From Octopus vulgaris (taxonomy: Eukaryota), in NCBI GenBank assembly GCA_951406725.2, contig OX597835.1, positions 14,198,001-14,262,000 on the forward strand: DNA of 64,000 bases, given 5' to 3'. Below, in pieces: positions 25,537 to 55,270 of the stretch. The notes beneath the pieces are model-generated. The model did no database searches. It worked only from the letters and a program-made list of their open reading frames with translations, and was not told the origin of the DNA. Positions within the stretch are counted from its first letter, which is position 1. Each line of letters begins with the position of its first letter. Made by a program: the position numbers and the translations under genes.

Positions 25537-25540
<4 letters not shown>
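25350..25540 (-). mobile_element. End of a non-autonomous Helitron-like element
   Basis: Minus strand starts TACTAGCAGTATCGCCCGGCGTTGCTCAGG (CTAG plus GC-rich hairpin) next to a (TA)n tract. Confidence 0.5.
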
Positions 25541-25581
<41 letters not shown>

Positions 25582-26290
25582 TATATATATATATACACAC
25601 ACACACATACATACATATATATTTGGAATTTACAAAAGAAACGAACAAAAGACGAAGACGGGTGTGTAAACAGCCAACAGGTTTATTAGTTTAACGCTCC
25701 GGACTTAGGAAAATTTATATAGGGAGTACTACTAATTTTAAAAATTAGATATAGGGGACACAAGAATTCATTTATTCACCCCTATATAAAAAAAATTCCA
25801 CGACATTTGCATCATGCATTAACCACCTCGTACAGTCTAACCATGAGTATAATTAATGATGGTCGATAATTACTGAATCAACACCATAGAACACATATAC
25901 TAAATCGTATAGGCTTTGCATCAAGGAATCGCGTAGCATACTATACGCTAGTAATAGAAATAAAAACATATTATTAAATAAAATTACAGACATTTTAGTA
26001 TGTTGTAAGCATAAATATTTAGCGTCTTATAATTTTCTTAAACTTTAAAATTAAATTTTTAAAATATAAAACTGTAAAGCTTTTTGAAAATACTATCTGG
26101 ATTAGATCCAATGAATATTTATGCATAAATCTAAAATCTTAAATAATTTCTTTGTTATTGTAGTATATATCAGTAAAAAATGGAATATTCCCAAAATTGC
26201 ATGATTAACTAAATGATTTTCATTTCTCATTTAAACGTGGTAATTCTCTATAAAATACTGTCACTTATTCATCGAAATCAACGTGGAATC

Positions 26291-26307
26291 TCACCATATA
26301 GTGCCTT
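26291..26307 (+). other. Target/TSD sequence TCACCATATAGTGCCTT (repeated at 31548, 36683, 41938, 47208)
   Basis: Identical 17-mer at both ends of the array and at every A-A junction. Confidence 0.92.
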
Positions 26308-26563
26308 CGTGAACATCGATACTCAAAAACGAAACGTGAGTTTTTTGTCTGAAATAGTGTTGTTGAAAGTTAGTAGTTTATTGTTGCTGTGTTAATATTG
26401 TTATTTTGTGTCTTTTCAATAAGACGGTTAGTGGCCTTCGCGCGAAGGTTGTGTACGTAGTTCCCCCCCGTGGGGGAATTATTGTGTGCCTTCGTGTACG
26501 AAACACATTCAAAAACAAAAAAAAAAAAAAAAAATATTTTCTACTAACGGCTGCAAAGCCAGA

Positions 26564-27894
26564 ATGTCCTTGGAAGGCAGTGAATGCAAACTGGAAGGAA
26601 AATTCGAAATGGATTTCCCCATTACCTATTCACCCATCTCAGGTGATGAAGAATCTCAAACCTCGGGTGAGAGAAGCACGCCGGCGGTGACACCGGAAAA
26701 AGAATCGGCGGTAACGCCAGAACAAAAGGCCCCAACAAAGAAGTTTGCGGAAGTTGTTGGACGCAAACAGAAAGATATAGATATAGAAAACCTAGAGAAA
26801 TATGAAGACCTTCTAAAGAAAGAAGGAAATGAAATTGCAGTGAAAAAAGATATGGAAAAAAAGGAAGAGATAGAAAAGAAAAGAATTATATACAAGACAT
26901 ATAGCACGACTACAAAAAGCATACAAAAAGTGGAAGAATGCAAAATAGAGGAGTGCCTGAAGACAATCCGAAAAGATATCACTTACATAAATAGAGGAAG
27001 ACGGTTCGGAACAGTAGAAGTGAGGTTCAGAACCGAAGAAATAGCTAAGAAGCTATCCACAGAACCTCAGAAAGCGGGAAATCTAGTCCTTCTACCCTTG
27101 TACAAAGGAAGAAGGACTTCAAAGATAGTAATGAGAAATATTCCCCCAGAGGCAGACGCCTCATGCCTGGTGGCGGCAGTGATGCTGGGCCTGAAAGAAA
27201 AAATCAACATCCTCCAAGCTACAGTGGAGGAGGAGGGATTTTGGCAGGGCCAGATCATAACAATGGCTATACAAGCAGAGGCCCAGACTCTGGAAGAAAT
27301 ACCAGAGGTGCTGAGGCTAGATGAGGAGGAGCGAGTTCTAGTATTTGTAGAAGGAAGAAAACCGAGGTGCTTCGGCTGCGGAAAGAAGGGGCACGTGAGA
27401 GCGGAGTGTCAACCAAAACCGCAGGTAGAAGAACCGTCGGAGAAAGAAGAAACGGAGGAAAAAAAGGAAACCAAAGAGGTGGAAAAAGCTGCAGAAAAGG
27501 AAAAAGAAAACGAAAAAGAGGAGGGTGGTCTAAAGTTACCAAAAAAAAAACGGAAAACTGAAACCACCCCTCAAGAAGAAGAAAACCTAAAGAAAAGGAA
27601 AGAGGTTACTTCTTCATTTATGGCCATTAAGGCTACTAACAACAGACTTGTCAATGTGTTGGCAGCCATGGCCAAGGTGGAACGTATAAGGAAGATGAAA
27701 GACTTCATCATATATAAAATAGGCCGGAAGGACTACAGGAGGATAAAATCCGAGTTCTTCCACGACGTGGGCCCTCTGAGACTGGACATGTCTCCATATC
27801 TATACGAGGGCCTACGTCGGACTCCCCCACGAGCCAAAGAAAAAAAAATGAAGAAGAAGGCGAAACCGCCGAAAAAGCCAAACTACCGATATAA
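26564..27894 (+). CDS. ORF1p (RRM-like region plus CX2CX4HX4C knuckle); homopolymer indels shift the C-terminal frame
   Basis: CFGCGKKGHVRAEC. ATG at 26564 or 26609; stop inferred from copies 2 and 4. Confidence 0.8.
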
Positions 27895-27902
27895 GGTAAG
27901 TG

Positions 27903-30900
27903 ATGAACTACATTTGTGTTGGTTGTTTAAATGTGCGCGGCCTGGGATCAAGCGGGAAGCAAGGTCGCTTCCTTAATGATATCAGGTCGCGCAATTTGGA
28001 TGTTATTGTTGCTACAGAAACCCGGTTAAAGGGGCCAAGAGATCTACTCCCACTGTTTGACGGCTACGAGAGTTTTTTCTCTCCTGGCAGTCCTGCAGGC
28101 GGGAGTGGGGTGTTGGTCCTACTAAAAAGAAACCGGGTTTTTGAGAAAAAGTTAATTTTTTCAGACCCAGAAGGTAGGCTGGTCGTCATGGATTTGACGT
28201 TCAGTAACGGTAAAGTTATCAGACTGGTTGCAATTTACGCACCCTGCAATGGGCAAAGTGATTATTATCGCGATCTAGAGAACTTTCTCGGTACTTCGCA
28301 TTCAATAGTTGTGCTAGGAGACTTTAACACAATTTGCAAAGCGGATGTAGATTGTGTTGGCTCGAATGATAGAAAAGGTAACACATGCTTCCTGGAACTG
28401 CTAAGCCGCTTTGAGCTAGCAGATCCTTATAGGTTGGAATTTCCGAACGCTCCATTGTGGACATGGTCAAACAGCGACGGATCTTCCAGGTCATACATAG
28501 ATAGAATTCTAATTAGAAAGGTAGACAGTAAAATAGCTAAGCGTCCACAGTTTTACCAGATCAGCTACAGTGATCATAAAATGGTCACTTGTAAGCTTGA
28601 CATAGATAAGGTTAGAAAGAGAGGATCCGGTTACTGGAAACTTAATACGTCCCTTTTGGCGATTAAGGAGTACAGAGACCGGATTAGGACCATAATTCAG
28701 AGGGCGCTGTCTGGTGCCATCATTAATAACAAATGGTGGTACGCCCTCAAACGAGCCATCAAGTTTGAGTCTATTAGATATAGCATAGGAGTAGTGTCTA
28801 GAGAGGCTAGAAGGGAAACTACTCTAGTTAAGGAATTAGAGGAAGCCATGAAAACTGGCTCTGCGGCTCAGGTGGCGTCCAAGAGACTGGTGTTAAACCA
28901 GCACCTCGAGGCCAAACACATGGGTTGCATTGTCAGGGCTAGAATCCGTCATATGGGATGTGAAGGAATCAACGCCGTGAGATGGGCCCGAGTGGTGGAA
29001 GCCCGGAATGGCAACGATGCCACGATTCGATCTTTGAAGAACCAACAAGGTGAGTTGATGGACGAACCCGAGGAGATGTGTGAGGCCTTTCAGGAGCGCT
29101 TCGCTCAGCTTTTCGGTGAGTGCGGCGGGCTGGATAGGAGGAGGGCCTTTACGGACCTACTCGACGGGCTGCCGCGCTTATCGGGGCGAGATGCGGAGGG
29201 CTGTGAAGGGCCAATCACGCCTGAGGAGGTGGTGGAGGCAATGGCGGACTGCGGCGCGGGCAAGGCGCCGGGTTTGGATGGTCTACCCTACGAGTTATAT
29301 AAGAATATGCCAGACTTGTTCGGGCACCTACTGGCGGAAGTCTATGCGAACTGGCAGCAGAACGGGTTGATACCCAGATCTGTGCGCCGGGGAGTAGTGA
29401 CTCTCGTCAGAAAGGACCCGAGCAAGGGGGAGTGCATTGATAATTTCAGGCCCATCACTCTGCTAAACACAGAGTTGAAGATTTTGGCCAAAGTGTTATC
29501 GAAAAGATTGGCGCGTGTCGCGGATGGTCTGATCGGGGAGGCACAGACATGTGCCGTTCCGGGCAGAACCATTCAGGATAATCTCCATCTAATGCGGTAC
29601 ACTATAGAGGGGTTTAATAGTGATTCTGGCAAGGGTGGGGCACTGGTCCATTTAGACCAATCCAAAGCTTTTGATAGGGTCGACCATCGTTACCTGGTGT
29701 CTGCTCTGGCACAGTTCGGGCTGGGCCTTGGCTTCCTCAGGTGGATTATCCAAATTTACGACAACATCGACTCGGTAGTTCGGGTGAACGGCTTCTTGTC
29801 GAAGCCGTTCAAAATCAAACGCTCGGTTCGTCAAGGGTGTCCGCTCTCCCCGCTTTTGTACGTGATGGCTCTTGAGCCATTACTGCGAAAACTGAGCGGC
29901 ATCCCGAGACAGCCAGGTAATGGAAAATCAGTGTCAGCGTACGCGGACGACATCACCATCATCGTGACCGAAATGGACCACCTATGTAAAGTAGGCAAGG
30001 CCATAGAGGATTACGAGACGGTGACAGGAGCAAAAGTTAATCGCGAAAAGTCAGTCGGCTTGCAACTCGGCACCTGGAGAGGCAAGTCGATGCCTCCTGA
30101 CAGCGTCGTGGGACGTTGGACGGAGGGTCCGATTAAACTGCTAGGGGTCTGGTTCGGTCCAGACCTCCAAATAGAGAAGAATTGGGGCGAGGTAACGAGC
30201 AAGGTGGCTGCAGTAGCCAAGACCTGGTCTAGGCGGTGGCTATCCTTGAAAGGGAGGGCGGAGGTGGCCAATGTGTTTATCGCATCGGTTATCATCTACC
30301 GCCTTTCCGTCGTTCCATGCCCTGATTCGTGGTTGACCAAGTTGGAAAGACAGCTCTTCTACTTCCTGTGGAAGGGCAGGAAACCACTTGTGAAACGCTC
30401 TACTTGCTGTCAACAACCGTTAAAGGGTGGGCTAGGGATGCCTTGGCTGATGATGCGCAGACATGCGCTGAGGTTAAGACATCTGTGGCTCTACCTGGAT
30501 GGTGAACGGGTGTGGTCTCCGTTAGCAAAACTGATGTTTCCCAAGTTCACTAGTTTCGGTGGATGGGAAACCTGGTTGAATCGTAGATCGAAACTCGGTA
30601 CATGGTATACGGAGTGTCGAAAGGCCCTCCTGCTATTCCGTCGCTCGGGCAACGCCTGCGGTGGGGGTTCCACCACATTCTTCTATAGAGGGTTGGTAGA
30701 GGCGGAATGTGAAGACACCTTGGGGGAAACCCTGGGTCTCGACGATAATCAGCTGGCTAGTCTGTTCCGACGTACGTTCGGGCCGAAGACTCTGGACAAC
30801 TTCCAGAAGTCTCTGGCATGGCAATGCTACAGAGGAGCTCTACCTGTTCGGGATAAACTCGCAAGGCACGGTGGCCAAGACAGTCCGATGTGTCCAAGAT

Positions 30901-31292
30901 GCGGGCGGGATAGGGAAACCGTCCCGCACGCTATTGTTCATTGTTCGGACGTGTCTGAGGTGTGGGTTTATGCCGAACAGCTGTTGTCAAGCACACGAAG
31001 AGTACAGCTGTCGACTGAGTGTATTAAAAAAATTGACCCACCAGATTTCCTCGCGAAAGAAGGTAAGACTTGTTTTCTCGTTGTGGTAGCAATTGCGAAG
31101 GAGGTGATATGGAAGACGAGAATGAAAGGTATACGGTCAGGCAAGTTCATATCCGGCCCTGGGTTGATGAACTACTTCATCTACCACCTGAAAAGGAAGA
31201 TAGGGCTGGAGAGAAAATGCCTGACTAAAAGAGTGTATGAAGAACGATGGAAGGATGTAGCACGGAAGTTGAGAATGGATGACACCATATAA
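27903..31292 (+). CDS. ORF2p: APE endonuclease + reverse transcriptase + C-terminal CCHC, intact
   Basis: LNVRGL, ATET, LGDFN, YIDRI, YSDH, WKLN; KAPGLDG, FRPITLLN, DQSKAFDRV, RQGCPLSP, YADD; GGLG; CPRC..H..C. Confidence 0.96.
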   Translation: MNYICVGCLNVRGLGSSGKQGRFLNDIRSRNLDVIVATETRLKGPRDLLPLFDGYESFFSPGSPAGGSGVLVLLKRNRVFEKKLIFSDPEGRLVVMDLTFSNGKVIRLVAIYAPCNGQSDYYRDLENFLGTSHSIVVLGDFNTICKADVDCVGSNDRKGNTCFLELLSRFELADPYRLEFPNAPLWTWSNSDGSSRSYIDRILIRKVDSKIAKRPQFYQISYSDHKMVTCKLDIDKVRKRGSGYWKLNTSLLAIKEYRDRIRTIIQRALSGAIINNKWWYALKRAIKFESIRYSIGVVSREARRETTLVKELEEAMKTGSAAQVASKRLVLNQHLEAKHMGCIVRARIRHMGCEGINAVRWARVVEARNGNDATIRSLKNQQGELMDEPEEMCEAFQERFAQLFGECGGLDRRRAFTDLLDGLPRLSGRDAEGCEGPITPEEVVEAMADCGAGKAPGLDGLPYELYKNMPDLFGHLLAEVYANWQQNGLIPRSVRRGVVTLVRKDPSKGECIDNFRPITLLNTELKILAKVLSKRLARVADGLIGEAQTCAVPGRTIQDNLHLMRYTIEGFNSDSGKGGALVHLDQSKAFDRVDHRYLVSALAQFGLGLGFLRWIIQIYDNIDSVVRVNGFLSKPFKIKRSVRQGCPLSPLLYVMALEPLLRKLSGIPRQPGNGKSVSAYADDITIIVTEMDHLCKVGKAIEDYETVTGAKVNREKSVGLQLGTWRGKSMPPDSVVGRWTEGPIKLLGVWFGPDLQIEKNWGEVTSKVAAVAKTWSRRWLSLKGRAEVANVFIASVIIYRLSVVPCPDSWLTKLERQLFYFLWKGRKPLVKRSTCCQQPLKGGLGMPWLMMRRHALRLRHLWLYLDGERVWSPLAKLMFPKFTSFGGWETWLNRRSKLGTWYTECRKALLLFRRSGNACGGGSTTFFYRGLVEAECEDTLGETLGLDDNQLASLFRRTFGPKTLDNFQKSLAWQCYRGALPVRDKLARHGGQDSPMCPRCGRDRETVPHAIVHCSDVSEVWVYAEQLLSSTRRVQLSTECIKKIDPPDFLAKEGKTCFLVVVAIAKEVIWKTRMKGIRSGKFISGPGLMNYFIYHLKRKIGLERKCLTKRVYEERWKDVARKLRMDDTI

Positions 31293-31826
31293 ATGTAGAT
31301 CAAAACGAAACCAAAAGTATCAGTGGTGAGGCGGGGCTCGTGGGGTCCGAGCTGAACCCGCCCCCACTCCACCTGTAGTGTCTTCCGGTCTGTTTTTTCT
31401 CATTCGATTTTTATAATTTTTGCAATTTTTGTAAATTTTTGAAATTTTTAAACTCATACTTTTGTAACCTCATACGTGAATCTGACCCCACATCAGGTTG
31501 TATTGTCCCCTCTTTGTTGGCCCCTTGTGGGTAATAATAAAAGAATCTCACCATATAGTGCCTTCGTGAACATCGATACTCAAAAACGAAACGTGAGTTT
31601 TTTGTCTGAAATAGTGTTGTTGAAAGTTAGTAGTTTATTGTTGCTGTGTTAATATTGTTATTTTGTGTCTTTTTCAATAAGACGGTTAGTGGCCTTCGCG
31701 CGAAGGTTGTGTACGTAGTTCCCCCCCCGTGGGGGAATTATTGTGTGCCTTCGTGTACGAAACACATTCAAAAACAAAAAAAAAAAAAAAAAAAAAATAT
31801 TTTCTACTAACGGCTGCAAAGCCAGA

Positions 31827-33158
31827 ATGTCCTTGGAAGGCAGTGAATGCAAACTGGAAGGAAAATTCGAAATGGATTTCCCCATTACCTATTCACCCAT
31901 CTCAGGTGATGAAGAATCTCAAACCTCGGGTGAGAGAAGCACGCCGGCGGTGACACCGGAAAAAGAATCGGCGGTAACGCCAGAACAAAAGGCCCCAACA
32001 AAGAAGTTTGCGGAAGTTGTTGGACGCAAACAGAAAGATATAGATATAGAAAACCTAGAGAAATATGAAGACCTTCTAAAGAAAGAAGGAAATGAAATTG
32101 CAGTGAAAAAAGATATGGAAAAAAAGGAAGAGATAGAAAAGAAAAGAATTATATACAAGACATATAGCACGACTACAAAAAGCATACAAAAAGTGGAAGA
32201 ATGCAAAATAGAGGAGTGCCTGAAGACAATCCGAAAAGATATCACTTACATAAATAGAGGAAGACGGTTCGGAACAGTAGAAGTGAGGTTCAGAACCGAA
32301 GAAATAGCTAAGAAGCTATCCACAGAACCTCAGAAAGCGGGAAATCTAGTCCTTCTACCCTTGTACAAAGGAAGAAGGACTTCAAAGATAGTAATGAGAA
32401 ATATTCCCCCAGAGGCAGACGCCTCATGCCTGGTGGCGGCAGTGATGCTGGGCCTGAAAGAAAAAATCAACATCCTCCAAGCTACAGTGGAGGAGGAGGG
32501 ATTTTGGCAGGGCCAGATCATAACAATGGCTATACAAGCAGAGGCCCAGACTCTGGAAGAAATACCAGAGGTGCTGAGGCTAGATGAGGAGGAGCGAGTT
32601 CTAGTATTTGTAGAAGGAAGAAAACCGAGGTGCTTCGGCTGCGGAAAGAAGGGGCACGTGAGAGCGGAGTGTCAACCGAAACCGCAGGCAGAAGAACCGT
32701 CGGAGAAAGAAGAAACGGAGGAAAAAAAGGAAACCAAAGAGGTGGAAAAAGCTGCAGAAAAGGAAAAAGAAAACGAAAAAGAGGAGGGGTGGTCTAAAGT
32801 TACCAAAAAAAAACGGAAAACTGAAACCACCCCTCAAGAAGAAGAAAACCTAAAGAAAAGGAAAGAGGTTACTTCTTCATTTATGGCCATTAAGGCTACT
32901 AACAACAGACTTGTCAATGTGTTGGCAGCCATGGCCAAGGTGGAACGTGTAAGGAAGATGAAAGACTTCATCATATATAAAATAGGCCGGAAGGACTACA
33001 GGAGGATAAAATCCGAGTTCTTCCACGACGTGGGCCCTCTGAGACTGGACATGTCTCCATATCTATACGAGGGCCTACGTCGGACTCCCCCACGAGCCAA
33101 AGAAAAAAAAAATGAAGAAGAAGGCGAAACCGCCGAAAAAGCCAAACTACCGATATAA
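31827..33158 (+). CDS. ORF1p, intact
   Basis: Continuous ORF with CCHC knuckle; stops 8 nt before the ORF2 ATG. Confidence 0.88.
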   Translation: MSLEGSECKLEGKFEMDFPITYSPISGDEESQTSGERSTPAVTPEKESAVTPEQKAPTKKFAEVVGRKQKDIDIENLEKYEDLLKKEGNEIAVKKDMEKKEEIEKKRIIYKTYSTTTKSIQKVEECKIEECLKTIRKDITYINRGRRFGTVEVRFRTEEIAKKLSTEPQKAGNLVLLPLYKGRRTSKIVMRNIPPEADASCLVAAVMLGLKEKINILQATVEEEGFWQGQIITMAIQAEAQTLEEIPEVLRLDEEERVLVFVEGRKPRCFGCGKKGHVRAECQPKPQAEEPSEKEETEEKKETKEVEKAAEKEKENEKEEGWSKVTKKKRKTETTPQEEENLKKRKEVTSSFMAIKATNNRLVNVLAAMAKVERVRKMKDFIIYKIGRKDYRRIKSEFFHDVGPLRLDMSPYLYEGLRRTPPRAKEKKNEEEGETAEKAKLPI

Positions 33159-33166
33159 GGTAAGTG

Positions 33167-36100
33167 ATGAACTACATTTGTGTTGGTTGTTTAAATGTGC
33201 GCGGCCTGGGATCAAGCGGGAAGCAAGGTCGCTTCCTTAATGATATCAGGTCGCGCAATTTGGATGTTATTGTTGCTACAGAAACCCGGTTAAAGGGGCC
33301 AAGAGATCTACTCCCACTGTTTGACGGCTACGAGAGTTTTTCTCTCCTGGCAGTCCTGCAGGCGGGAGTGGGGTGTTGGTCCTACTAAAAAGAAACCGGG
33401 TTTTTGAGAAAAAGTTAATTTTTTCAGACCCAGAAGGTAGGCTGGTCGTCATGGATTTGACGTTCAGTAACGGTAAAGTTATCAGACTGGTTGCAATTTA
33501 CGCACCCTGCAATGGGCAAAGTGATTATTATCGCGATCTAGAGAACTTTCTCGGTACTTCGCATTCAATAGTTGTGCTAGGAGACTTTAACACAATTTGC
33601 AAAGCGGATGTAGATTGTGTTGGCTCGAATGATAGAAAAGGTAACACATGCTTCCTGGAACTGCTAAGCCGCTTTGAGCTAGCAGATCCTTATAGGTTGG
33701 AATTTCCGAACGCTCCATTGTGGACATGGTCAAACAGCGACGGATCTTCCAGGTCATACATAGATAGAATTCTAATTAGAAAGGTAGACAGTAAAATAGC
33801 TAAGCGTCCACAGTTTTACCAGATCAGCTACAGTGATCATAAAATGGTCACTTGTAAGCTTGACATAGATAAGGTTAGAAAGAGAGGATCCGGTTACTGG
33901 AAACTTAATACGTCCCTTTTGGCGATTAAGGAGTACAGAGACCGGATTAGGACCATAATTCAGAGGGCGCTGTCTGGTGCCATCATTAATAACAAATGGT
34001 GGTACGCCCTCAAACGAGCCATCAAGTTTGAGTCTATTAGATATAGCATAGGAGTAGTGTCTAGAGAGGCTAGAAGGGAAACTACTCTAGTTAAGGAATT
34101 AGAGGAAGCCATGAAAACTGGCTCTGCGGCTCAGGTGGCGTCCAAGAGACTGGTGTTAAACCAGCACCTCGAGGCCAAACACATGGGTTGCATTGTCAGG
34201 GCTAGAATCCGTCATATGGGATGTGAAGGAATCAACGCCGTGAGATGGGCCCGAGTGGTGGAAGCCCGGAATGGGCACGATTCGATCGTTTGAAGAACCA
34301 ACAAGGTGAGTTTGGACGAACCCGAGGAGATGTGTGAGGCTCTTCAGGAGCGCTTCGCTCAGCTTTTCGGTGAGTGCGGCTTTGAACGGACCTACCAACA
34401 AGGTGATGGAGGGCTGTGAATGCCAATCATGCGCTGACGAGGTGGTGGAACAATGGCGGACTGCGGCGCGGGAGGAGATGTGGTCTACCCTACGAGTTAT
34501 ATAAGAATATGCCAGACTTGTTCGGTGGATAACTGGTTGAATCGTAGATCGAAACTGCAGCAGAAGGAGTGTCGAATCTGTGCGTTGCTATTCCGTCGCT
34601 CGAAGGCAACGCCTGCGGTGGAGGGTTCCACCATCATCTTCTATAGAGGGTTGGTAGAGGCGGAAAGTGAAGACACCTTGGGGGAAACGCGGGTCTCGAC
34701 GATAATCAGCTGGCTAGTCTGTTCCGACAGTACGTTCCGGGCAGAACCATTGGAAACGCATCTAATGCGGTACAACATAGAGGAGCTCTAGTGTTCGGGG
34801 TGGGCACTGGTCCAAGACCAATCCAAGATGCTGATAGGGAAACCGTCCCGCACGCTATTCGTTATTGTCTTCGGACGTTCTGAGGTGTGGGTTTTGCCGA
34901 ACAGCTGTTGTCAAGCACACGAAGAGTACAGCTGTCGAAGCCGTTCAAAATCAAACGCTCGGTTCGTCAAGGGTGTCCGCTCTCCCGCTTTTGTACGTGA
35001 TGGCTCTTGAGCCATTACTGCGAAAAGAGCGGCATCCCGAGACAGCCAGGTAATGGAAAATCAGTGTCAGCGTACATGGCGGACGACATCACCATCATCG
35101 TGACCGAAATGGACCACCTATGTAAAGTAGGCAAGGCCATAGAGGATTACGAGACGGTGACAGGAGCAAAAAGTTAATCGCGAAAAGTCAGTCGGCTTGC
35201 AACTCGGCACCTGGAGGCAAGTCGATGCCTCCTGACAGCGTCGTGGGACGTTGGACGGAGGGTCCGATTAAACTGCTAGGGGTCTGGTTCGGTCCAGACC
35301 TCCAAATAGAGAAGAATTGGGGCGAGGTAACGAGCAAGGTGGCTGCAGTAGCCAAGACCTGGTCTAGGCGGTGGCTATCCTTGAAAGGGAGGGCGGAGGT
35401 GGCCAATGTGTTTATCGCATCGGTTATCATCTACCGCCTTTCCGTCGTTCCATGCCCTGATTCGTGGTTGACCAAGTTGGAAAGACAGCTCTTCTACTTC
35501 CTGTGGAAGGGCAGGAAACCACTTGTGAAACGCTCTACTTGCTGTCAACAACCGTTAAAGGGTGGGCTAGGGATGCCTTGGCTGATGATGCGCAGACATG
35601 CGCTGAGGTTAAGACATCTGTGGCTCTACCTGGATGGTGAACGGGTGTGGTCTCCGTTAGCAAAACTGATGTTTCCCAAGTTCACTAGTTTCGGTGGATG
35701 GGAAACCTGGTTGAATCGTAGATCGAAACTCGGTACATGGTATACGGAGTGTCGAAAGGCCCTCCTGCTATTCCGTCGCTCGGGCAACGCCTGCGGTGGG
35801 GGTTCCACCACATTCTTCTATAGAGGGTTGGTAGAGGCGGAATGTGAAGACACCTTGGGGGAAACCCTGGGTCTCGACGATAATCAGCTGGCTAGTCTGT
35901 TCCGACGTACGTTCGGGCCGAAGACTCTGGACAACTTCCAGAAGTCTCTGGCATGGCAATGCTACAGAGGAGCTCTACCTGTTCGGGATAAACTCGCAAG
36001 GCACGGTGGCCAAGACAGTCCGATGTGTCCAAGATGCGGGCGGGATAGGGAAACCGTCCCGCACGCTATTGTTCATTGTTCGGACGTGTCTGAGGTGTGG

Positions 36101-36427
36101 GTTTATGCCGAACAGCTGTTGTCAAGCACACGAAGAGTACAGCTGTCGACTGAGTGTATTAAAAAAATTGACCCACCAGATTTCCTCGCGAAAGAAGGTA
36201 AGACTTGTTTTCTCGTTGTGGTAGCAATTGCGAAGGAGGTGATATGGAAGACGAGAATGAAAGGTATACGGTCAGGCAAGTTCATATCCGGCCCTGGGTT
36301 GATGAACTACTTCATCTACCACCTGAAAAGGAAGATAGGGCTGGAGAGAAAATGCCTGACTAAAAGAGTGTATGAAGAACGATGGAAGGATGTAGCACGG
36401 AAGTTGAGAATGGATGACACCATATAA
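33167..36427 (+). pseudogene. ORF2, disrupted (frameshift near 33340; scrambled RT region, probably an assembly artefact)
   Basis: Fragments 33164-33388, 33373-34293 and 35225-36427 match the intact ORF2. Confidence 0.8.
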
Positions 36428-38282: not shown

Positions 38283-38290
38283 GGTAAGTG

Positions 38291-41680: not shown

Positions 41681-42218
41681 ATGTAGATCAAAACGAAACC
41701 AAAAGTATCAGTGGTGAGGCGGGGCTCGTGGGGTCCGAGCTGAACCCGCCCCCACTCCACCTGTAGTGTCTTCCGGTCTGTTTTTTTTCTCATTCGATTT
41801 TTATAATTTTTGCAATTTTTGTAAATTTTTGAAATTTTTAAACTCATACTTTTGTAACCTCATACGTGAATCTGACCCCACATCAGGTTGTATTGTCCCC
41901 TCTTTGTTGGCCCCTTGTGGGTAATAATAAAAGAATCTCACCATATAGTGCCTTCGTGAACATCGATACTCAAAAACGAAACGTGAGTTTTTTTGTCTGA
42001 AATAGTGTTGTTGAATTGAAAGTTAGTAGTTTATTGTTGCTGTGTTAATATTGTTATTTTGTGTCTTTTCAATAAGACGGTTAGTGGCCTTCGCGCGAAG
42101 GTTGTGTACGTAGTTCCCCCCCGTGGGGGAATTATTGTGTGCCTTCGTGTACGAAACACATTCAAAAACAAAAAAAAAAAAAAAAAAAATATTTTCTACT
42201 AACGGCTGCAAAGCCAGA

Positions 42219-43547
42219 ATGTCTTTGGAAGGCAGTGAATGCAAACTGGAAGGAAAATTCGAAATGGATTTCCCCATTACCTATTCACCCATCTCAGGTG
42301 ATGAAGAATCTCAAACCTCGGGTGAGAGAAGCACGCCGGCGGTGACACCGGAAAAAGAATCGGCGGTAACGCCAGAACAAAAGGCCCCAACAAAGAAGTT
42401 TGCGGAAGTTGTTGGACGCAAACAGAAAAATATAGATATAGAAAACCTAGAGAAATATGAAGACCTTCTAAAGAAAGAAGGAAATGAAATTGCAGTGAAA
42501 AAAGATATGGAAAAAAAGGAAGAGATAGAAAAGAAAAGAATTATATACAAGACATACAGCATGACTACAAAAAGCATACAAAAAGTGGAAGAATGCAAAA
42601 TAGAGGAGTGCCTGAAGACAATCAGAAAAGATATCACTTACATAAATAGAGGAAGACGGTTCGGAACAGTAGAAGTGAGGTTCAGAACCGAAGAAATAGC
42701 TAAGAAGCTATCCACAGAACCTCAGAAAGCGGGAAATCTAGTCCTTCTACCCTTGTACAAAGGAAGAAGGACTTCAAAGATAGTAATGAGAAATATTCCC
42801 CCAGAGGCAGACGCCTCATGCCTGGTGGCGGCAGTGATGCTGGGCCTGAAAGAAAAAATCAACATCCTCCAAGCTACAGTGGAGGAGGAGGGATTTTGGC
42901 AGGGCCAGATCATAACAATGGCTATACAAGCAGAGGCCCAGACTCTGGAAGAAATACCAGAGGTGCTGAGGCTAGATGAGGAGGAGCGAGTTCTAGTATT
43001 TGTAGAAGGAAGAAAACCGAGGTGCTTCGGCTGCGGAAAGAAGGGGCACGTGAGAGCGGAGTGTCAACCGAAACCGCAGGCAGAAGAACCGTCGGAGAAA
43101 GAAGAAACGGAGGAAAAAAAGGAAACCAAAGAGGTGGAAAAAGCTGCAGAAAAGGAAAAAGAAAACGAAAAAGAGGAGGGGTGGTCTAAAGTTACCAAAA
43201 AAAAACGGAAAACTGAAACCACCCCTCAAGAAGAAGAAAACCTAAAGAAAAGGAAAGAGGTTACTTCTTCATTTATGGCCATTAAGGCTACTAACAACAG
43301 ACTTGTCAATGTGTTGGCAGCCATGGCCAAGGTGGAACGTGTAAGGAAGATGAAAGACTTCATCATATATAAAATAGGCCGGAAGGACTACAGGAGGATA
43401 AAATCCGAGTTCTTCCACGACGTGGGCCCTCTGAGACTGGACATGTCTCCATATCTATACGAGGGCCTACGTCGGACTCCCCCACGAGCCAAAGAAAAAA
43501 ATGAAGAAGAAGGCGAAACCGCCGAAAAAGCCAAACTACCGATATAA
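42219..43547 (+). CDS. ORF1p, intact
   Basis: Continuous ORF with CCHC knuckle. Confidence 0.88.
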   Translation: MSLEGSECKLEGKFEMDFPITYSPISGDEESQTSGERSTPAVTPEKESAVTPEQKAPTKKFAEVVGRKQKNIDIENLEKYEDLLKKEGNEIAVKKDMEKKEEIEKKRIIYKTYSMTTKSIQKVEECKIEECLKTIRKDITYINRGRRFGTVEVRFRTEEIAKKLSTEPQKAGNLVLLPLYKGRRTSKIVMRNIPPEADASCLVAAVMLGLKEKINILQATVEEEGFWQGQIITMAIQAEAQTLEEIPEVLRLDEEERVLVFVEGRKPRCFGCGKKGHVRAECQPKPQAEEPSEKEETEEKKETKEVEKAAEKEKENEKEEGWSKVTKKKRKTETTPQEEENLKKRKEVTSSFMAIKATNNRLVNVLAAMAKVERVRKMKDFIIYKIGRKDYRRIKSEFFHDVGPLRLDMSPYLYEGLRRTPPRAKEKNEEEGETAEKAKLPI

Positions 43548-43555
43548 GGTAAGTG

Positions 43556-46500
43556 ATGAACTACATTTGTGTTGGTTGTTTAAATGTGCGCGGCCTGGGA
43601 TCAAGCGGGAAGCAAGGTCGCTTCCTTAATGATATCAGGTCGCGCAATTTGGATGTTATTGTTGCTACAGAAACCCGGTTAAAGGGGCCAAGAGATCTAC
43701 TCCCACTGTTTGACGGCTACGAGAGTTTTTTCTCTCCTGGCAGTCCTGCAGGCGGGAGTGGGGTGTTGGTCCTACTAAAAAGAAACCGGGTTTTTGAGAA
43801 AAAGTTAATTTTTTCAGACCCAGAAGGTAGGCTGGTCGTCATGGATTTGACGTTCAGTAACGGTAAAGTTATCAGACTGGTTGCAATTTACGCACCCTGC
43901 AGTAATAATGGGCAAAGTGATTATTATCGTGATCTAGAGAACTTTCTCGGTACTTCGCATTCAATAGTTGTGCTAGGAGACTTTAACACAATTTGCAAAG
44001 CGGATGTAGATTGTGTTGGCTCGAATGATAGAAAAGGTAACACATGCTTCCTGGAACTGCTAAGCCGCTTTGAGCTAGCAGATCCTTATAGGTTGGAATT
44101 TCCGAACGCTCCATTGTGGACATGGTCAAACAGCGACGGATCTTCCAGGTCATACATAGATAGAATTCTAATTAGAAAGGTAGACAGTAAAATAGCTAAG
44201 CGTCCACAGTTTTACCCGATCAGCTACAGTGATCATAAAATGGTCACTTGTAAGCTTGACATAGATAAGGTTAGAAAGAGAGGATCCGGTTACTGGAAAC
44301 TTAATACGTCCCTTTTGGCGATTAAGGAGTACAGAGACCGGATTAGGACCATAATTCAGAGGGCGCTGTCTGGTGCCATCATTAATAACAAATGGTGGTA
44401 CGCCCTCAAACGAGCCATCAAGTTTGAGTCTATTAGATATAGCATAGGAGTAGTGTCTAGAGAGGCTAGAAGGGAAACTACTCTAGTTAAGGAATTAGAG
44501 GAAGCCATGAAAACTGGCTCTGCGGCTCAGGTGGCGTCCAAGAGACTGGTGTTAAACCAGCACCTCGAGGCCAAACACATGGGTTGCATTGTCAGGGCTA
44601 GAATCCGTCATATGGGATGTGAAGGAATCAACGCCGTGAGATGGGCCCGAGTGGTGGAAGCCCGGAATGGCAACGATGCCACGATTCGATCTTTGAAGAA
44701 CCAACAAGGTGAGTTGATAGACGAACCCGAGGAGATGTGTGAGGCCTTTCAGGAGCACTTCGCTCAGCTTTTCGGTGAGTGCGGCGGGCTGGATAGGAGG
44801 AGGGCCTTTACGGACCTACTCGACGGGCTGCCGCGCTTATCGGGGCGAGATGCGGAGGGCTGTGAAGGGCCAATCACGCCTGAGGAGGTGGTGGAGGCAA
44901 TGGCGGACTGCGGCGCGGGCAAGGCGCCGGGTTTGGATGGTCTACCCTACGAGTTATATAAGAATATGCCAGACTTGTTCGGGCACCTACTGGCGGAAGT
45001 CTATGCGAACTGGCAGCAGAACGGGTTGATACCCAGATCTGTGCGCCGGGGAGTGGTGACTCTCGTCAGAAAGGACCCGAGCAAGGGGGAGTGCATTGAT
45101 AATTTCAGGCCCATCACTCTGCTAAACACAGAGTTGAAGATTTTGGCCAAAGTGTTATCGAAAAGATTGGCGCGTGTCGCGGATGGTCTGATCGGGGAGG
45201 CACAGACATGTGCCGTTCCGGGCAGAACCATTCAGGATAATCTCCATCTAATGCGGTACACTATAGAGGGGTTTAATAGTGATTCTGGCAAGGGTGGGGC
45301 ACTGGTCCATTTAGACCAATCCAAAGCTTTTGATAGGGTCGACCATCGTTACCTGGTGTCTGCTCTGGCACAGTTCGGGCTGGGCCTTGGCTTCCTCAGG
45401 TGGATTATCCAAATTTACGACAACATCGACTCGGTAGTTCGGGTGAACGGCTTCTTGTCGAAGCCGTTCAAAATCAAACGCTCGGTTCGTCAAGGGTGTC
45501 CGCTCTCCCCGCTTTTGTACGTGATGGCTCTTGAGCCATTACTGCGAAAACTGAGCGGCATCCCGAGACAGCCAGGTAATGGAAAATCAGTGTCAGCGTA
45601 CGCGGACGACATCACCATCATCGTGACCGAAATGGACCACCTATGTAAAGTAGGCAAGGCCATAGAGGATTACGAGACGGTGACAGGAGCAAAAGTTAAT
45701 CGCGAAAAGTCAGTCGGCTTGCAACTCGGCACCTGGAGAGGCAAGTCGATGCCTCCTGACAGCGTCGTGGGACGTTGGACGGAGGGTCCGATTAAACTGC
45801 TAGGGGTCTGGTTCGGTCCAGACCTCCAAATAGAGAAGAATTGGGGCGAGGTAACGAGCAAGGTGGCTGCAGTAGCCAAGACCTGGTCTAGGCGGTGGCT
45901 ATCCTTGAAAGGGAGGGCGGAGGTGGCCAATGTGTTTATCGCATCGGTTATCATCTACCGCCTTTCCGTCGTTCCATGCCCTGATTCGTGGTTGACCAAG
46001 TTGGAAAGACAGCTCTTCTACTTCCTGTGGAAGGGCAGGAAACCACTTGTGAAACGCTCTACTTGCTGTCAACAACCGTTAAAGGGTGGGCTAGGGATGC
46101 CTTGGCTGATGATGCGCAGACATGCGCTGAGGTTAAGACATCTGTGGCTCTACCTGGATGGTGAACGGGTGTGGTCTCCGTTAGCAAAACTGATGTTTCC
46201 CAAGTTCACTAGTTTCGGTGGATGGGAAACCTGGTTGAATCGTAGATCGAAACTCGGTACATGGTATACGGAGTGTCGAAAGGCCCTCCTGCTATTCCGT
46301 CGCTCGGGCAACGCCTGCGGTGGGGGTTCCACCACATTCTTCTATAGAGGGTTGGTAGAGGCGGAATGTGAAGACACCTTGGGGGAAACCCTGGGTCTCG
46401 ACGATAATCAGCTGGCTAGTCTGTTCCGACGTACGTTCGGGCCGAAGACTCTGGACAACTTCCAGAAGTCTCTGGCATGGCAATGCTACAGAGGAGCTCT

Positions 46501-46951
46501 ACCTGTTCGGGATAAACTCGCAAGGCACGGTGGCCAAGACAGTCCGATGTGTCCAAGATGCGGGCGGGATAGGGAAACCGTCCCGCACGCTATTGTTCAT
46601 TGTTCGGACGTGTCTGAGGTGTGGGTTTATGCCGAACAGCTGTTGTCAAGCACACGAAGAGTACAGCTGTCGACTGAGTGTATTAAAAAAATTGACCCAC
46701 CAGATTTCCTCGCGAAAGAAGGTAAGACTTGTTTTCTCGTTGTGGTAGCAATTGCGAAGGAGGTGATATGGAAGACGAGAATGAAAGGTATACGGTCAGG
46801 CAAGTTCATATCCGGCCCTGGGTTGATGAACTACTTCATCTACCACCTGAAAAGGAAGATAGGGCTGGAGAGAAAATGCCTGACTAAAAGAGTGTATGAA
46901 GAACGATGGAAGGATGTAGCACGGAAGTTGAGAATGGATGACACCACATAA
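43556..46951 (+). CDS. ORF2p APE-RT, intact (2 aa longer)
   Basis: Same motifs as copy 1; APCSNNGQ vs APCNGQ. Confidence 0.96.
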   Translation: MNYICVGCLNVRGLGSSGKQGRFLNDIRSRNLDVIVATETRLKGPRDLLPLFDGYESFFSPGSPAGGSGVLVLLKRNRVFEKKLIFSDPEGRLVVMDLTFSNGKVIRLVAIYAPCSNNGQSDYYRDLENFLGTSHSIVVLGDFNTICKADVDCVGSNDRKGNTCFLELLSRFELADPYRLEFPNAPLWTWSNSDGSSRSYIDRILIRKVDSKIAKRPQFYPISYSDHKMVTCKLDIDKVRKRGSGYWKLNTSLLAIKEYRDRIRTIIQRALSGAIINNKWWYALKRAIKFESIRYSIGVVSREARRETTLVKELEEAMKTGSAAQVASKRLVLNQHLEAKHMGCIVRARIRHMGCEGINAVRWARVVEARNGNDATIRSLKNQQGELIDEPEEMCEAFQEHFAQLFGECGGLDRRRAFTDLLDGLPRLSGRDAEGCEGPITPEEVVEAMADCGAGKAPGLDGLPYELYKNMPDLFGHLLAEVYANWQQNGLIPRSVRRGVVTLVRKDPSKGECIDNFRPITLLNTELKILAKVLSKRLARVADGLIGEAQTCAVPGRTIQDNLHLMRYTIEGFNSDSGKGGALVHLDQSKAFDRVDHRYLVSALAQFGLGLGFLRWIIQIYDNIDSVVRVNGFLSKPFKIKRSVRQGCPLSPLLYVMALEPLLRKLSGIPRQPGNGKSVSAYADDITIIVTEMDHLCKVGKAIEDYETVTGAKVNREKSVGLQLGTWRGKSMPPDSVVGRWTEGPIKLLGVWFGPDLQIEKNWGEVTSKVAAVAKTWSRRWLSLKGRAEVANVFIASVIIYRLSVVPCPDSWLTKLERQLFYFLWKGRKPLVKRSTCCQQPLKGGLGMPWLMMRRHALRLRHLWLYLDGERVWSPLAKLMFPKFTSFGGWETWLNRRSKLGTWYTECRKALLLFRRSGNACGGGSTTFFYRGLVEAECEDTLGETLGLDDNQLASLFRRTFGPKTLDNFQKSLAWQCYRGALPVRDKLARHGGQDSPMCPRCGRDRETVPHAIVHCSDVSEVWVYAEQLLSSTRRVQLSTECIKKIDPPDFLAKEGKTCFLVVVAIAKEVIWKTRMKGIRSGKFISGPGLMNYFIYHLKRKIGLERKCLTKRVYEERWKDVARKLRMDDTT

Positions 46952-47241
46952 ATGTAGATCAAAACGAAACCAAAAGTATCAGTGGTGAGGCGGGGCTCGT
47001 GGGGTCCGAGCTGAACCCGCCCCCACTCCACCTGTAGTGTCTTCCGGTCTGTTTTTTCTCATTCGATTTTTATAATTTTTGCAATTTTTGTAAATTTTTG
47101 AAATTTTTAAACTCATACTTTTGTAACCTCATACGTGAATCTGACCCCACATCAGGTTGTATTGTCCCCTCTTTGTTGGCCCCTTGTGGGTAATAATAAA
47201 AGAATGGTCACCATATAGTGCCTTACTGCTTTCTGCTTTCT

Positions 47242-48976
47242 GCTCAGTCGTTTTTTTTTCGGCTCCTGAAAATTCGGTAAAAAAGAACAAAAAAGGTTGT
47301 TGTTGTTGTGGAAATTCTGAACGGCGTTGACGCGGTTTCGCGTTTCGCTCGTTCAGCGCGTTACACTTTTTCTGTTTTGGCGGCCGTTTTCGGTCTGTCA
47401 GACAGAAGGAAATGGACTATGAGTCTCTAACAGACTTGTCCACGACGGATGAGGAACTGGAACAGGCAATTGCAGTGAAGCTGATGGAGGAAAAGGCTGG
47501 AGTTTTTGAGTCTTTATCAGACTTGTCTAGTCTGAGGAGGAGCTAGAAATAGCAGTGAGGAAAATGGATCAGAAGCTGGGTTATACCTATGCCGGTGTAA
47601 CCAAGAAGGCGGAAGAGAAAGGGGTCGACATGGCCAAGTTGCCAAGTTACCAGAAATACATGAAGGGGGAAGGCGGTGAGGTGGAGCTGTCACCGACACC
47701 CAGGAGAAAAGAATGGTATGATAAGAGGACCATTGTTTACAGGGTGTTCGCAAACGAAAGGAAGAGGGTAGAAGTTGTAACCATGGAATGGATAGAGGAA
47801 GCCCTGCGAAGAACTGAGGAGGAAATAAATTTTCTGACTCGAGGATCCAAGTACGGGACCGTAGTTGTGCACTTTAAAAGTGAATCTGCAGCGAGGAAGA
47901 TGGCAGCGAAGGCGGTGAAGTCGGAAAAGGTAACACTGTTACCTACGTATTTAAACAGGAGGATTACACGAATAAGGGTGGAGGGAGTGCCACCAAACGT
48001 GGAGGCAGAATGGATTGTGGCGGCTGTGATCAGCGGCCACGAGGACGAAGTGGATATTCTCCATGCCTCGGTTAAGTCCGAGGGCTGGAGAGGCGTAACA
48101 GTGGAGCTGAACGTACAGGCAGAGACCGAGGTACTGGTGGACCTGACGGAAAGCATCAGACTGGGAGAAGTGATCATGAGAGTGTGGGTGGAGGGCAGGG
48201 CTCCACGTTGTTACAAGTGTGGCCTGAGGGGTCACATAAGAGCCTTCTGCCCTCCCCCAGGGAAAGAAATGGATCCCGAACCAGAGAGAGAGAAGCAGAA
48301 ACCAGAGGAGAAGGAAACAGAGGAAGAGAATACACAGAAATGGAAGGAAGCTGGAAGTAAGAGGAAGAGAAGAATATGTGGAAAAAAAGAAAATAATATG
48401 GAACTCCAATCTACCCCAAAACCTCCCACACCCTCTGAGTCCCACCCTATCCATGCAGACATTGAACCCACCCGCTCCCCCCAACAAGAAAACAAAAGAA
48501 AAAAAGAATACACACACACAAGAGATTGAAATCGAACCCAGGCCGTACATTTGTACTATGACTGAACAGAGGGAAGTTAAAAGTCTAATGGAAGAGTATA
48601 AACGGTATGATGTTGGAGAGACTAGGTATGCTGTGATTGAAAAGAAGAACATAGGTGAGTTTATGGGGAGGTGTGAAAGGGAGAATTGGGAGGTGAAAGA
48701 TATAAGAATGAGCGATGAATTCGTGGAAAATATGAATGAGTATTTCGGAGTAAGAATGGATATGGAATTTATTCGTATTGGCAAAGAACATTCAAGTGAC
48801 TATGAAAAACAAAGGACAGGTAAGTGATGCTGACGGACGGGGCCGTTGGTATCGCTTTCATTTTATCATTTTTTTCGTTTAACAATTCATGTTCATAAAG
48901 TTTAATTATAATGTTCTATGTCCCCATGTCTTTTGTTGTCCCCCTCTGTGTCGCCCCTTAGTGGGTAATAAAAAAT
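47242..48976 (+). mobile_element. ORF1-only non-autonomous Tx1-related element, family B copy 1
   Basis: 5'UTR, ORF1 homologue, short 3'UTR ending GCCCCTTAGTGGGTAATAAAAAA; no ORF2. Confidence 0.88.
47412..48827 (+). pseudogene. Family B ORF1, frameshifted (near 47530 and 48480-48510)
   Basis: Pieces 47555-48529 and 48378-48827 match the intact 49149-50564 ORF. Confidence 0.8.
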
Positions 48977-48978
48977 CA

Positions 48979-50716
48979 GCTCAGTCGTTTTTTTTTCGGC
49001 TCCTGAAAATTCGGTAAAAAAGAACAAAAAAGGTTGTTGTTGTTGTGGAAATTCTGAACGGCGTTGACGCGGTTTCGCGTTTCGCTCGTTCAGCGCGTTA
49101 CACTTTTTCTGTTTTGGCGGCCGTTTTCGGTCTGTCAGACAGAAGGAAATGGACTATGAGTCGCTAACAGACTTATCCACGACGGATGAGGAACTGGAAC
49201 AGGCAATTGCAGTGAAGCTGATGGAGGAAAAGGCTGGAGTTTTTGAGTCTTTATCAGACTTGCCTATGTCTGAGAAGGAGCTAGATATGGCAGCAAGGGA
49301 ATTGGAAAAGAAGCTGGGTTATACTTATGCCGGTGTAACCAAGAAGGCGGAAGAGAAAGGGGTCGACATGGCCAAGTTGCCAAGTTACCAGAAATACATG
49401 AAAAAGGAAAGCGGTGAGGTGGAACTATCACCGACACCCAGGAGAAAAGAATGGTATGATAAGAGGACCATTGTTTACAGGGTGTTCGCAAACGAAAGGA
49501 AGAGGGTAGAAGTTGTAACCATGGAATGGATACAGGAAGCCCTGCGAAGAACTGAGGAGGAAATAAATTTTCTGACTCGAGGATCCAAGTACGGGACCGT
49601 AGTTGTGCACTTTAAAAGTGAATCTGCAGCGAGGAAGATGGCAGCGAAGGCGGTGAAGTCGGAAAAGGTAACACTGTTACCTACGTATTTAAACAGGAGG
49701 ATTACACGAATAAGGGTGGAGGGAGTGCCACCAAACGTGGAGGCAGAATGGATTGTGGCGGCTGTGATCAGCGGCCACGAGGACGAAGTAGATATTCTCC
49801 ATGCCTCGGTTAAGTCCGAGGGCTGGAGAGGAGTAACAGTGGAGCTGAACGTACAGGCAGAGACCGAGGTACTGGTGGACCTGACGGAAAGCATCAGACT
49901 GGGAGAAGTGATCATGAGAGTGTGGGTGGAGGGCAGGGCTCCACGTTGTTACAAGTGTGGCCTGAGGGGTCACATAAGAGCCTTCTGCCCTCCAGGGAAA
50001 GAAATGGATCCCGAACCAGAGAGAGAGAAGCAGAAACCAGAGGAGAAGGAAACAGAGGAAGAGAATACACAGACATGGAAGGAAGCTGGAAGTAAGAGGA
50101 AGAGAAGAATATGTGGAAAAAAAGAAAATAATATGGAACTCCAATCTACCCCAAAACCTCCCACACCCTCTGAGTCCCACCCTATCCATGCAGACATTGA
50201 ACCCACCCGCTCCCCACCAACAAGAAAACAAAAGAAAAAAAAGAATACACACACACAAGAGATTGAAATCGAACCCAGGCCGTACATTTGTACTATGACT
50301 GAACAGAGGGAAGTTAAAAGTCTAATGGAAGAGTATAAACGGTATGATGTTGGAGAGACTAGGTATGCTGTGATTGAAAAAAAGAACATAGGTGAGTTTA
50401 TGGGGAGGTGTGAAAAGGAAAATTGGGAGGTGAAAGATATAAGAATGAGCGATGAATTCGTGGAAAATATGAATGAGTATTTCGGAGTAAGAATGGATAT
50501 GGAATTTATTCATATTGGCAAAGAACATTCAAGTGACTATGAAAAACAAAGGACAGGTAAGTGATGCTGACGGACGGGGCCGTTGGTGTCGCTTTCATTT
50601 TATCATTTTTTCGGTTAACACTTCATGTTCATAAAATTTAATTATAATGTTCTGTGTCCCCATGTTTTGTTATGTCCGGCACTCTTCGTAGCCCCTTAGT
50701 GGGTAATAAAGAAATA
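48979..50716 (+). mobile_element. Family B copy 2
   Basis: Same 5' end GCTCAGTCGTTTTT; 3' end GCCCCTTAGTGGGTAATAAAGAAATA followed by TSD GCCTTACTGCTTTCTGCT (50717-50734 = 47220-47237). Confidence 0.9.
49149..50564 (+). CDS. Family B ORF1p, intact, 471 aa (CCHC knuckle), divergent homologue of family A ORF1p
   Basis: RGSKYGTVVVHF ~ RGRRFGTVEVRF; VWVEGRAPRCYKCGLRGHIRAFC ~ VFVEGRKPRCFGCGKKGHVRAEC. Confidence 0.88.
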   Translation: MDYESLTDLSTTDEELEQAIAVKLMEEKAGVFESLSDLPMSEKELDMAARELEKKLGYTYAGVTKKAEEKGVDMAKLPSYQKYMKKESGEVELSPTPRRKEWYDKRTIVYRVFANERKRVEVVTMEWIQEALRRTEEEINFLTRGSKYGTVVVHFKSESAARKMAAKAVKSEKVTLLPTYLNRRITRIRVEGVPPNVEAEWIVAAVISGHEDEVDILHASVKSEGWRGVTVELNVQAETEVLVDLTESIRLGEVIMRVWVEGRAPRCYKCGLRGHIRAFCPPGKEMDPEPEREKQKPEEKETEEENTQTWKEAGSKRKRRICGKKENNMELQSTPKPPTPSESHPIHADIEPTRSPPTRKQKKKKNTHTQEIEIEPRPYICTMTEQREVKSLMEEYKRYDVGETRYAVIEKKNIGEFMGRCEKENWEVKDIRMSDEFVENMNEYFGVRMDMEFIHIGKEHSSDYEKQRTGK

Positions 50717-50884
50717 GCCTTACTGCTTTCTGCTGGATTTTACCTCGAGAAAGGAACCCTGAGGAAGGAGGGCTGAATTTCGAATACTTCGTACAACAAA
50801 CGGCTGCAGGTTAGGAAAAAAATTTAATCGCCTCTTTCAATTTAGGTTTTCATTTTTCATGTTTTTATTTGTATTTCATTGTTT

Positions 50885-52950: not shown

Positions 52951-52951
52951 T

Positions 52952-55048: not shown

Positions 55049-55058
55049 TTAATTAAGA

Positions 55059-55171: not shown

Positions 55172-55245
<74 letters not shown>

Positions 55246-55270
55246 TTGCTGTTGCTGTTGTTGTTGTTGT

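Follow-up and report, generated by a model that had tools for sequence, protein, structure and literature searches.

Families of the Tx1 clade of retrotransposons target other transposons, and work on crocodilian and Xenopus families describes tandem copies around the target site duplication (TSD), flank-driven transcription, and a clade rule by which targeting is set by the endonuclease (PMC4494074). The same work applies the Kojima criterion, under which a family is target specific when >20% of its flanks lie in one repeat type. Drosophila R1 arrays and tandem dimers of transposable elements are described as arising by double insertion, which leaves a TSD between copies, and as expanding through unequal exchange (10.1101/158386), while the Dictyostelium elements TRE5-A and TRE3 insert 40 to 54 bp upstream or 40 to 150 bp downstream of tRNA genes (PMC5911963). 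A survey of octopus repeats reports 13 active L1-Tx1 families, and the portion of its main text available to us does not contain the word "target" (PMC13282606). We found no literature on octopus Tx1 targets or on TATA-proximal Tx1 insertion; such work may exist in subscription journals, in Repbase reports, or in the supplement of PMC13282606. Here, we describe a locus in a 64,000-nucleotide stretch of the Octopus vulgaris genome (2.8 Gb), hereafter the window (contig OX597835.1, positions 14,198,001 to 14,262,000; G000:C22:14198001-14262000 in our locus naming for contigs). Four Tx1/L1-type long interspersed elements (LINEs), A1 to A4, and two elements encoding only open reading frame 1 (ORF1), B1 and B2, stand there head to tail within a repeat that we call T1. 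With moderate confidence, we read the locus as a Tx1/L1-type train in T1, in which a ~110-bp zone used by at least nine families is likely a borrowed promoter.

Elements of one LINE group occupy T1

T1 is a dispersed repeat with 86 exact right anchors and 85 exact left anchors, and its occupancy was measured on 46 copies with both exact anchors. Thirty-three of these copies are short, with little or nothing inserted, and the other 13 are long; every long copy holds elements of the same LINE group, 12 in sense and 1 in antisense orientation. With 2,000 ends placed randomly, a generous count puts the chance expectation at ~0.004 occupied copies among the 46. The T1 assignment of the C27 arrays (32.95 and 31.87 Mb) is based solely on the left flank. 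Among the 40 best A 3′ ends, 34 lie in T1 trains (12 loci), 5 are off target (4 of them from truncated copies), and 1 is unchecked; for the youngest copies, at least 97% identical, the share in T1 trains is 33 of 34. The flanks of mapped 3′ ends therefore concentrate well above the >20% threshold, both for A in T1 (34/40) and for B in a second target repeat, T2 (14/22 loci), which supports the proposal of target-directed Tx1-like elements made in the initial annotation. The 26 inserted 5′ regions recovered from T1 form 10 clusters at 80%, or 9 when one interrupted A is set aside; at least nine families thus use the T1 zone. A relative of A, 80% identical to it, has three near-identical 3′ ends (L307 to L309, G000:C1:77.08-77.16 Mb) that share one flank; this flank begins ATCGATG, like A's usual site, and the three were probably duplicated together.

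The initial annotation had restored an empty site by removing all six elements, and this reconstruction matches real empty copies elsewhere, which usually carry G where the window has A (CACCAT[A/G]TAG) and show much indel variation between the anchors. Its multicopy landing pad is likewise borne out, in the form of a dispersed repeat with filled and empty copies. Its 30-bp sequence target did not hold up: the exact 17-mer at its core, TCACCATATAGTGCCTT, has 6 copies genome-wide, and insertions in T1 are scattered at many positions over ~110 bp. In two sets of T1 alleles (L057 and L055/L056), the insertion zone is wholly or mostly deleted; these may be repair scars or escape alleles.

A putative TATA-like box precedes the zone (26228..26235, + strand), reading CATTTAAA in the window and TATTTAAA in most T1 copies, and the window allele alone has a second TATAAAA, at 26249-26255. 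On this sequence evidence, the T1 strip likely lies just behind a promoter. A known RNA gene (U2, tRNA, or 5S) was rejected as the target, since no tRNA or Rfam family matched: the window holds 0 tRNAs and 0 Rfam matches at the gathering score, and the right flank and one empty T1 copy returned Rfam matches only at E > 1. A protein-coding exon was also rejected, since inspection by eye found short frames only and no ORF. Four contig sets presumed to derive from RNA have low T1 cover and no splice joint at a donor-like site in the right flank (described below), which weighs neither way.

The six-element train

The train is flanked on the left by an older variant of T1 (25539..26290, + strand; copies elsewhere are 76 to 92% identical) and on the right by T1 sequence at 50717..50942 (+ strand), which includes a putative splice-donor-like CAG/GTTAGG at 50809/50810. 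All six elements lie on the + strand, head to tail, confirming the co-orientation first reported, and the short duplications stand where the initial annotation had placed them. The 17-mer occurs five times, first at 26291..26307 (+ strand) and again at 31548, 36683, 41938, and 47208, and the 18-mer GCCTTACTGCTTTCTGCT occurs twice, at 47220 (47220..47237, + strand, the left duplication of the B pair) and 50717 (50717-50734).

The four A units are 5,118 to 5,253 bp long and, A2 excepted, differ pairwise by 0.15 to 0.33%. In A1 (26308..31547), ORF1 (26564-27976) has local frameshifts and ORF2 (27903-31292) is open, with APE, RT, and zf-RVT domains. A2 (31565..36682) has an open ORF1 and a broken ORF2, A3 (36700..41937) has an ORF1 frameshifted within an A-run and an open ORF2 (38291-41680), and A4 (41955..47207), whose 3′ junction is unlike those of the other A units, has both ORF1 (42219-43547) and ORF2 (43556-46951) open. 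Of the "four autonomous LINEs" initially described, three (A1, A3, and A4) thus retain an open ORF2, but only A4 has both frames clean; the ORF1 frameshifts of A1 and A3 are in homopolymers. The ORF2 of A2 is scrambled at 34380-34933, a patchwork of ORF2 pieces 75 to 79% identical. No listed contig from four DNA runs spans this segment, a hole that alone proves nothing; coverage of the region in these contig sets is patchy, and loose contig ends carry normal sequence. The scramble is likely a consensus or assembly error. An assembly gap lies to the left of the train, at 25250-25349.

The B units, 1,737 and 1,738 bp long, differ at 36 positions (97% identity). B1 (47238..48978, + strand) has a frameshifted ORF1, and B2 (48979..50716, + strand) has an open ORF1 of 471 amino acids (49149-50564). 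The two are not each bounded by the 18-mer, which bounds only the pair and is missing from the B1/B2 junction. Instead, the tail of B1 continues into GCTCAGTCG, the 5′ end of B2, and B1 therefore sits inside the head of B2.

Identity of A and B and the second target

A has a separate ORF1 and an ORF2 with an N-terminal apurinic endonuclease-like domain (APE, PF03372), a reverse transcriptase (RT, PF00078), and a C-terminal zinc-binding domain (zf-RVT, PF13966), the organization of the L1/Tx1 group of non-long terminal repeat retrotransposons. Human L1 ORF2p is its nearest relative of solved structure, at an E of 4e-71 versus 1e-24 for R2, and a "TX1" label appears on one of 37 ORF2 homologues only, at 26% identity. 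We provisionally assign A to the Tx1 clade from architecture (including a weak CCHC knuckle, E of 0.07) and behavior.

The ORF1 of B2 is 31 to 33% identical to that of A and has a weak CCHC knuckle, and the 3′ tail of B is common to A. An ORF2 start follows none of 151 B-like ORF1 matches at 63 fetched loci. B thus has the makeup of a nonautonomous, HAL1-like element, with an ORF1, no ORF2, and a 3′ tail shared with an autonomous partner, and because B-like ORF1s at the fetched loci stand without a downstream ORF2 and the tail is shared with A, B is best read as a passenger. An abundant short interspersed element (SINE), seen at 18787-19180 and 19112 (− strand), shares its 3′ tail with A and B; the LINE group may therefore mobilize it as well, though this SINE is dispersed.

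The main B site lies inside T2, a 1-kb Helitron-like repeat that contains a decayed ORF1-like fragment of the LINE group (L259:1000-2050 and relatives). Helitron-like nonautonomous elements have a 3′ hairpin plus CTAG and a common 5′ end and make no TSD; T2 ends with a 3′ hairpin and CTAG and has a common 5′ end. It has 1,327 exact anchors, and 2 of 30 sampled copies are occupied. The 22 B loci among the 40 best matches divide into 14 in T2, 2 in T1, 1 in a SINE, and 5 undecided, while none of the 40 best A 3′ ends was seen in T2. Thirty of the 373 3′ ends across the group were sampled in order of position: 8 adjoin T2, 11 adjoin a further element through a T2-like duplication, and 11 adjoin other sequence. 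The initial annotation had two lineages converging on overlapping 17- and 18-bp targets; since B encodes no endonuclease and its insertions are mainly in a Helitron-like repeat, such convergence is not shown. The giant composite discussed below holds an internally deleted T2 piece (56544-56840 and 3385-3582, − strand), and an array of 13 B copies (G000:C2:138770565-138793400), whose junctions are of several types, ends in an autonomous A relative and T2.

Where the nick falls

Nick offsets were counted from the TATA-like box for 24 events with both junctions read, a count that excludes C27c, whose first tail was missed, the antisense L324, L338, which has no 3′ junction, and the window's B. 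The T1 nicks span −20 to +86, and 14 of 24 fall at +28 to +42, with local sequence that varies among them; by family-site class, 8 of 16 are within this 15-bp interval (binomial 6e-4, interval chosen post hoc). In T2, the nick falls roughly +35 to +37 from the TATAAAG of that repeat; one allele that lacks the usual motif is nicked at +39, by another family.

This clustering, common to two unrelated targets, might suggest strict fixed-distance tethering to TATA-binding protein or the RNA polymerase II preinitiation complex, much as TRE5-A is tethered to TFIIIB. TRE5 and TRE3 are L1-group precedents for tethering (PMC5911963), and the 5′ tags described below start at about +32 from the box. However, the nick offsets extend from −20 to +86, and L338 shares the window's 5′ junction without the extra TATAAAA. 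We consider strict tethering quite improbable. We rejected a strict TATA-distance model on the offsets from +61 to +86 and, on L338, a window site shifted along with the new TATAAAA.

Alternatively, each family could carry a sequence-specific APE, as Tx1L does, with T1 offering several loose matches and the TATA-like box being incidental, an extension of the initial annotation's idea to many families. Endonuclease-set targeting is the stated rule of the clade (PMC4494074), and certain family-site pairs recur at differing distances from the box: TCACCAT(A/G)TAGTGCCTT, the window's site, lies at +58 to +61 here and is duplicated at +79 by another family in L323, and CAACTG is used twice at +67. 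Site preferences are also evident, of A for ATCGATAC and of B and A-like relatives for CACATGG in T2. Against this, the single family A, in copies 98 to 99% identical, uses at least four T1 sites (ATCGATAC, which it prefers, GAAC/ACCCGA, ACCCAAC, and TCACCAT), which departs from Tx1L or R1, where each family has a single nick position and a single TSD sequence. Its 40 best 3′ ends also include none seen in T2, despite the 1,327 exact anchors of T2 versus 86 for T1, and the motif-less T2 allele is nicked even so, though by another family. We judge this account unlikely, if less so than tethering. Because the window's site at +58 to +61 and +79, a B site at +86 on C31, and L338 contradict a pure distance rule, we conclude that a zone effect and local sequence are both at work.

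A giant Merlin-type carrier

The carrier of young T1 copies is a composite built of old repeats and satellites; it is 95 to 99% identical between contigs, and its left end is shared and present near many T1 loci. Short relatives with the same end have an exact 8-bp TSD in 22 of 25 cases. The 5′-GG inverted ends and 8-bp TSDs of the short relatives and of giant copies on C24 and C13 fit Merlin elements, which make TSDs of 8 to 9 bp. The C24 copy (G000:C24:35334248-35357825) is 23.6 kb long, with inverted ends and the TSD TTAGTATC, and the C13 copy, with both ends and an 8-bp TSD within a microsatellite, is 30.4 kb long. A Merlin transposase (DDE_Tnp_IS1595) remnant was found at 1 of 42 end-bearing loci (L149, E of 6e-17), and the four giant copies scanned gave no transposase match. 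The giant right end was not found in the 20 to 30 kb behind four of five loci, the window's included. Older T1 copies outside the giant element also carry insertions, and targeting is therefore independent of the carrier.

The window's copy has the giant right arm (50717..64000, + strand; 95 to 99% identical to other contigs) but an older left flank, and it continues ~14.5 kb past the window. The arm contains mariner and Tc1-like remnants and satellites. A mariner-like remnant lies at ~51000-51400 (− strand), and a decayed transposase frame at 53087-54200, inside the composite, is presumably Tc1/mariner-like. The first satellite after the host's unique arm varies by copy (a 5-mer, TTGCTG, or TTTA) and is followed by shared 70/73-bp and 29-bp satellites (1116-3305, 55113-56393, and 56888-63998). 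At its other end, the window opens with the right arm of a neighboring host copy (1..6213, + strand), whose T1 lies 3 kb left of the window and contains another train, made up of three A-type LINEs older than those in the window (G000:C22:14178948-14194885, L135 and L136). The window also contains a 720-bp element with related GGATCTTTTC ends (11906-12625) and a Merlin transposase remnant (~20460-20750).

5′ tags and growth of the trains

Each A copy in the window begins with a 5′ tag (26308..26330, + strand, in A1; the same on A2 to A4) composed of C, GTGAAC, and ATCGATACTCAAAAAC, which is T1 sequence of other alleles. Its last 16 bp, ATCGATACTCAAAAAC, are A's commoner duplication, found at 4 loci and a neighboring locus, and the window's copies hold it only as a tag, behind their own 17-mer. 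Other arrays have longer, layered tags, and the T1 18-mer heads 7 B copies in the 13-copy C2 array, which is bounded by T2 at both ends. Since T1-derived tags occur on elements elsewhere, flank sequence evidently travels with the elements. Such tags would be expected if transcription starts upstream or crosses junctions. Read-through target RNA sharpens R1 and R2 insertion.

Junctions are uniform within arrays and different between them. Divergence was counted over 4,060 columns in 26 copies, leaving out the A2 scramble and gapped columns. A2 and A3 differ at 1 position and A1 differs from both at 4 to 5, while A4 differs from A1 to A3 at 8 to 12 (12 from A1) versus 7 from a C30 copy; two neighboring C30 copies differ at 27. 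Since A4 is nearer the C30 copy and A2 and A3 are nearly identical, we conclude that the trains mix independent insertions with local amplification. In a simpler history, A and B would each have inserted once; local duplication or assembly error would account for all further copies, and transport inside the giant element for all of their spread. The identical junctions of A1 to A3, with their 1 to 5 differences, the scrambled A2, the gap 1 kb to the left of the train, and the sharing of junctions by several loci speak for it. However, A4 is distinct in both its 3′ junction and its sub-lineage, and at least nine families occupy T1 at many nick positions, also in old copies outside the giant element. 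We therefore regard this history as highly improbable, and for the system as a whole it is already largely refuted.

Proposed mechanism and implications

The mechanism that we propose would start from the observed gathering of full-length copies in T1 or T2, in sense orientation, with truncated copies also landing randomly. The A-type ORF2 protein would nick the zone behind the TATA-like box, most often at +28 to +42; short motifs nearby, and probably the pairing of target-derived stretches on RNA ends, would fix the exact base. As the structure of the trains indicates, every insertion duplicates its site, so that later elements, including ORF1-only passengers like B, could stack there. Dimers would then grow via unequal exchange or copied junction-spanning RNA; the window would need at least two A and two B events, A1 to A3 possibly being one event amplified. 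Transcription would begin in the flank, adding the 5′ tags, and the giant Merlin-type element would carry T1 to new places, as seen at two loci.

Several points weigh against this mechanism. The promoter role of T1 is a prediction. Ten of the 24 nicks, the window's included, fall outside +28 to +42, at recurring motifs (TCACCAT at +58 to +61 and +79, CAACTG at +67, and GCCTT at +86); the interval itself was picked after the data were seen, and about one-third of the offsets involved reading or correction by eye. Copies may descend from one loaded host, and single-base differences within an array may be polishing artifacts. Of 12 loci, 5 have a readable, nonmicrosatellite duplication outside T2, and at none of these 5 was a TATA box seen before the off-target insertion at that distance, and one B tag (L087) begins upstream of the T2 TATA box. 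Finally, both ends of the giant element and a TSD were seen at 2 of the 6 loci examined, one of them in a microsatellite, and the window's copy is not among them.

We can only speculate on a wider scheme, which we find possible but doubtful: a Tx1-clade radiation that locates its sites via TATA-promoter start regions in mobile elements, not a fixed DNA word, takes over the promoter, and tags hosts 5′, while a giant Merlin multiplies the strip, making three tiers of self-renewing parasites. One family using several sequences in a promoter-like zone, shared by nine, offers a natural panel of alleles and near-identical enzymes for the study of target recognition and switching, which also bears on retrotransposon-based gene insertion. 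Trains of near-identical 5-kb units furthermore flag trouble spots in assemblies. Should the promoter link fail, the locus would be an ordinary example of a well-documented behavior, the targeting of other transposons by Tx1 elements.

Comparison with known systems

Like Tx1-Mar, SINEU, and Tx1-9_AMi of crocodilians and Tx1L in the Xenopus element Tx1D, the octopus elements prefer a site inside another transposon and have passengers, and they share with these systems tandem copies around the TSD, flank-derived 5′ ends, and possible transcription from the flank (PMC4494074). Unlike them, as far as the cited account describes them, the octopus system has a ~110-bp target zone, downstream of a TATA-like box, that is nicked at many positions and shared by no fewer than nine families; its passengers are ORF1 only, and its hosts are a 23- to 30-kb Merlin-type composite and a Helitron-like repeat with an old ORF1 fragment. 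The dimer-then-expansion route of Drosophila R1 and other transposable elements offers a precedent for the trains (10.1101/158386), whereas mixed families, a dispersed non-ribosomal DNA target, and tags exported to other targets set the octopus trains apart from what is described there. TRE5-A and TRE3 are likewise L1-group APE elements with an insertion window tied to a promoter, in their case a polymerase III promoter and TFIIIB, by experiment (PMC5911963), and here a putative TATA-like box in a repeat with no tRNA or Rfam gene.

Among the passengers and carriers, B resembles the half-L1 element HAL1 in being nonautonomous and encoding only ORF1 (PMC5753468); it differs in that its ORF1 is 31 to 33% identical to that of A and that no B-type autonomous parent was present at the fetched loci. 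The giant host has the 5′-GG termini, inverted ends, and 8-bp TSD of Merlin transposons as described in PMC8101967, but it carries 23 to 30 kb of old repeats and satellites, with no transposase match in four giant copies. By analogy, the system would work like crocodilian Tx1-Mar combined with R1-type arrays, to which it would add a promoter-proximal zone shared by many families, a combination that we did not find in print. Altogether, the locus is target directed, built from known parts, and richer than the initial annotation said.

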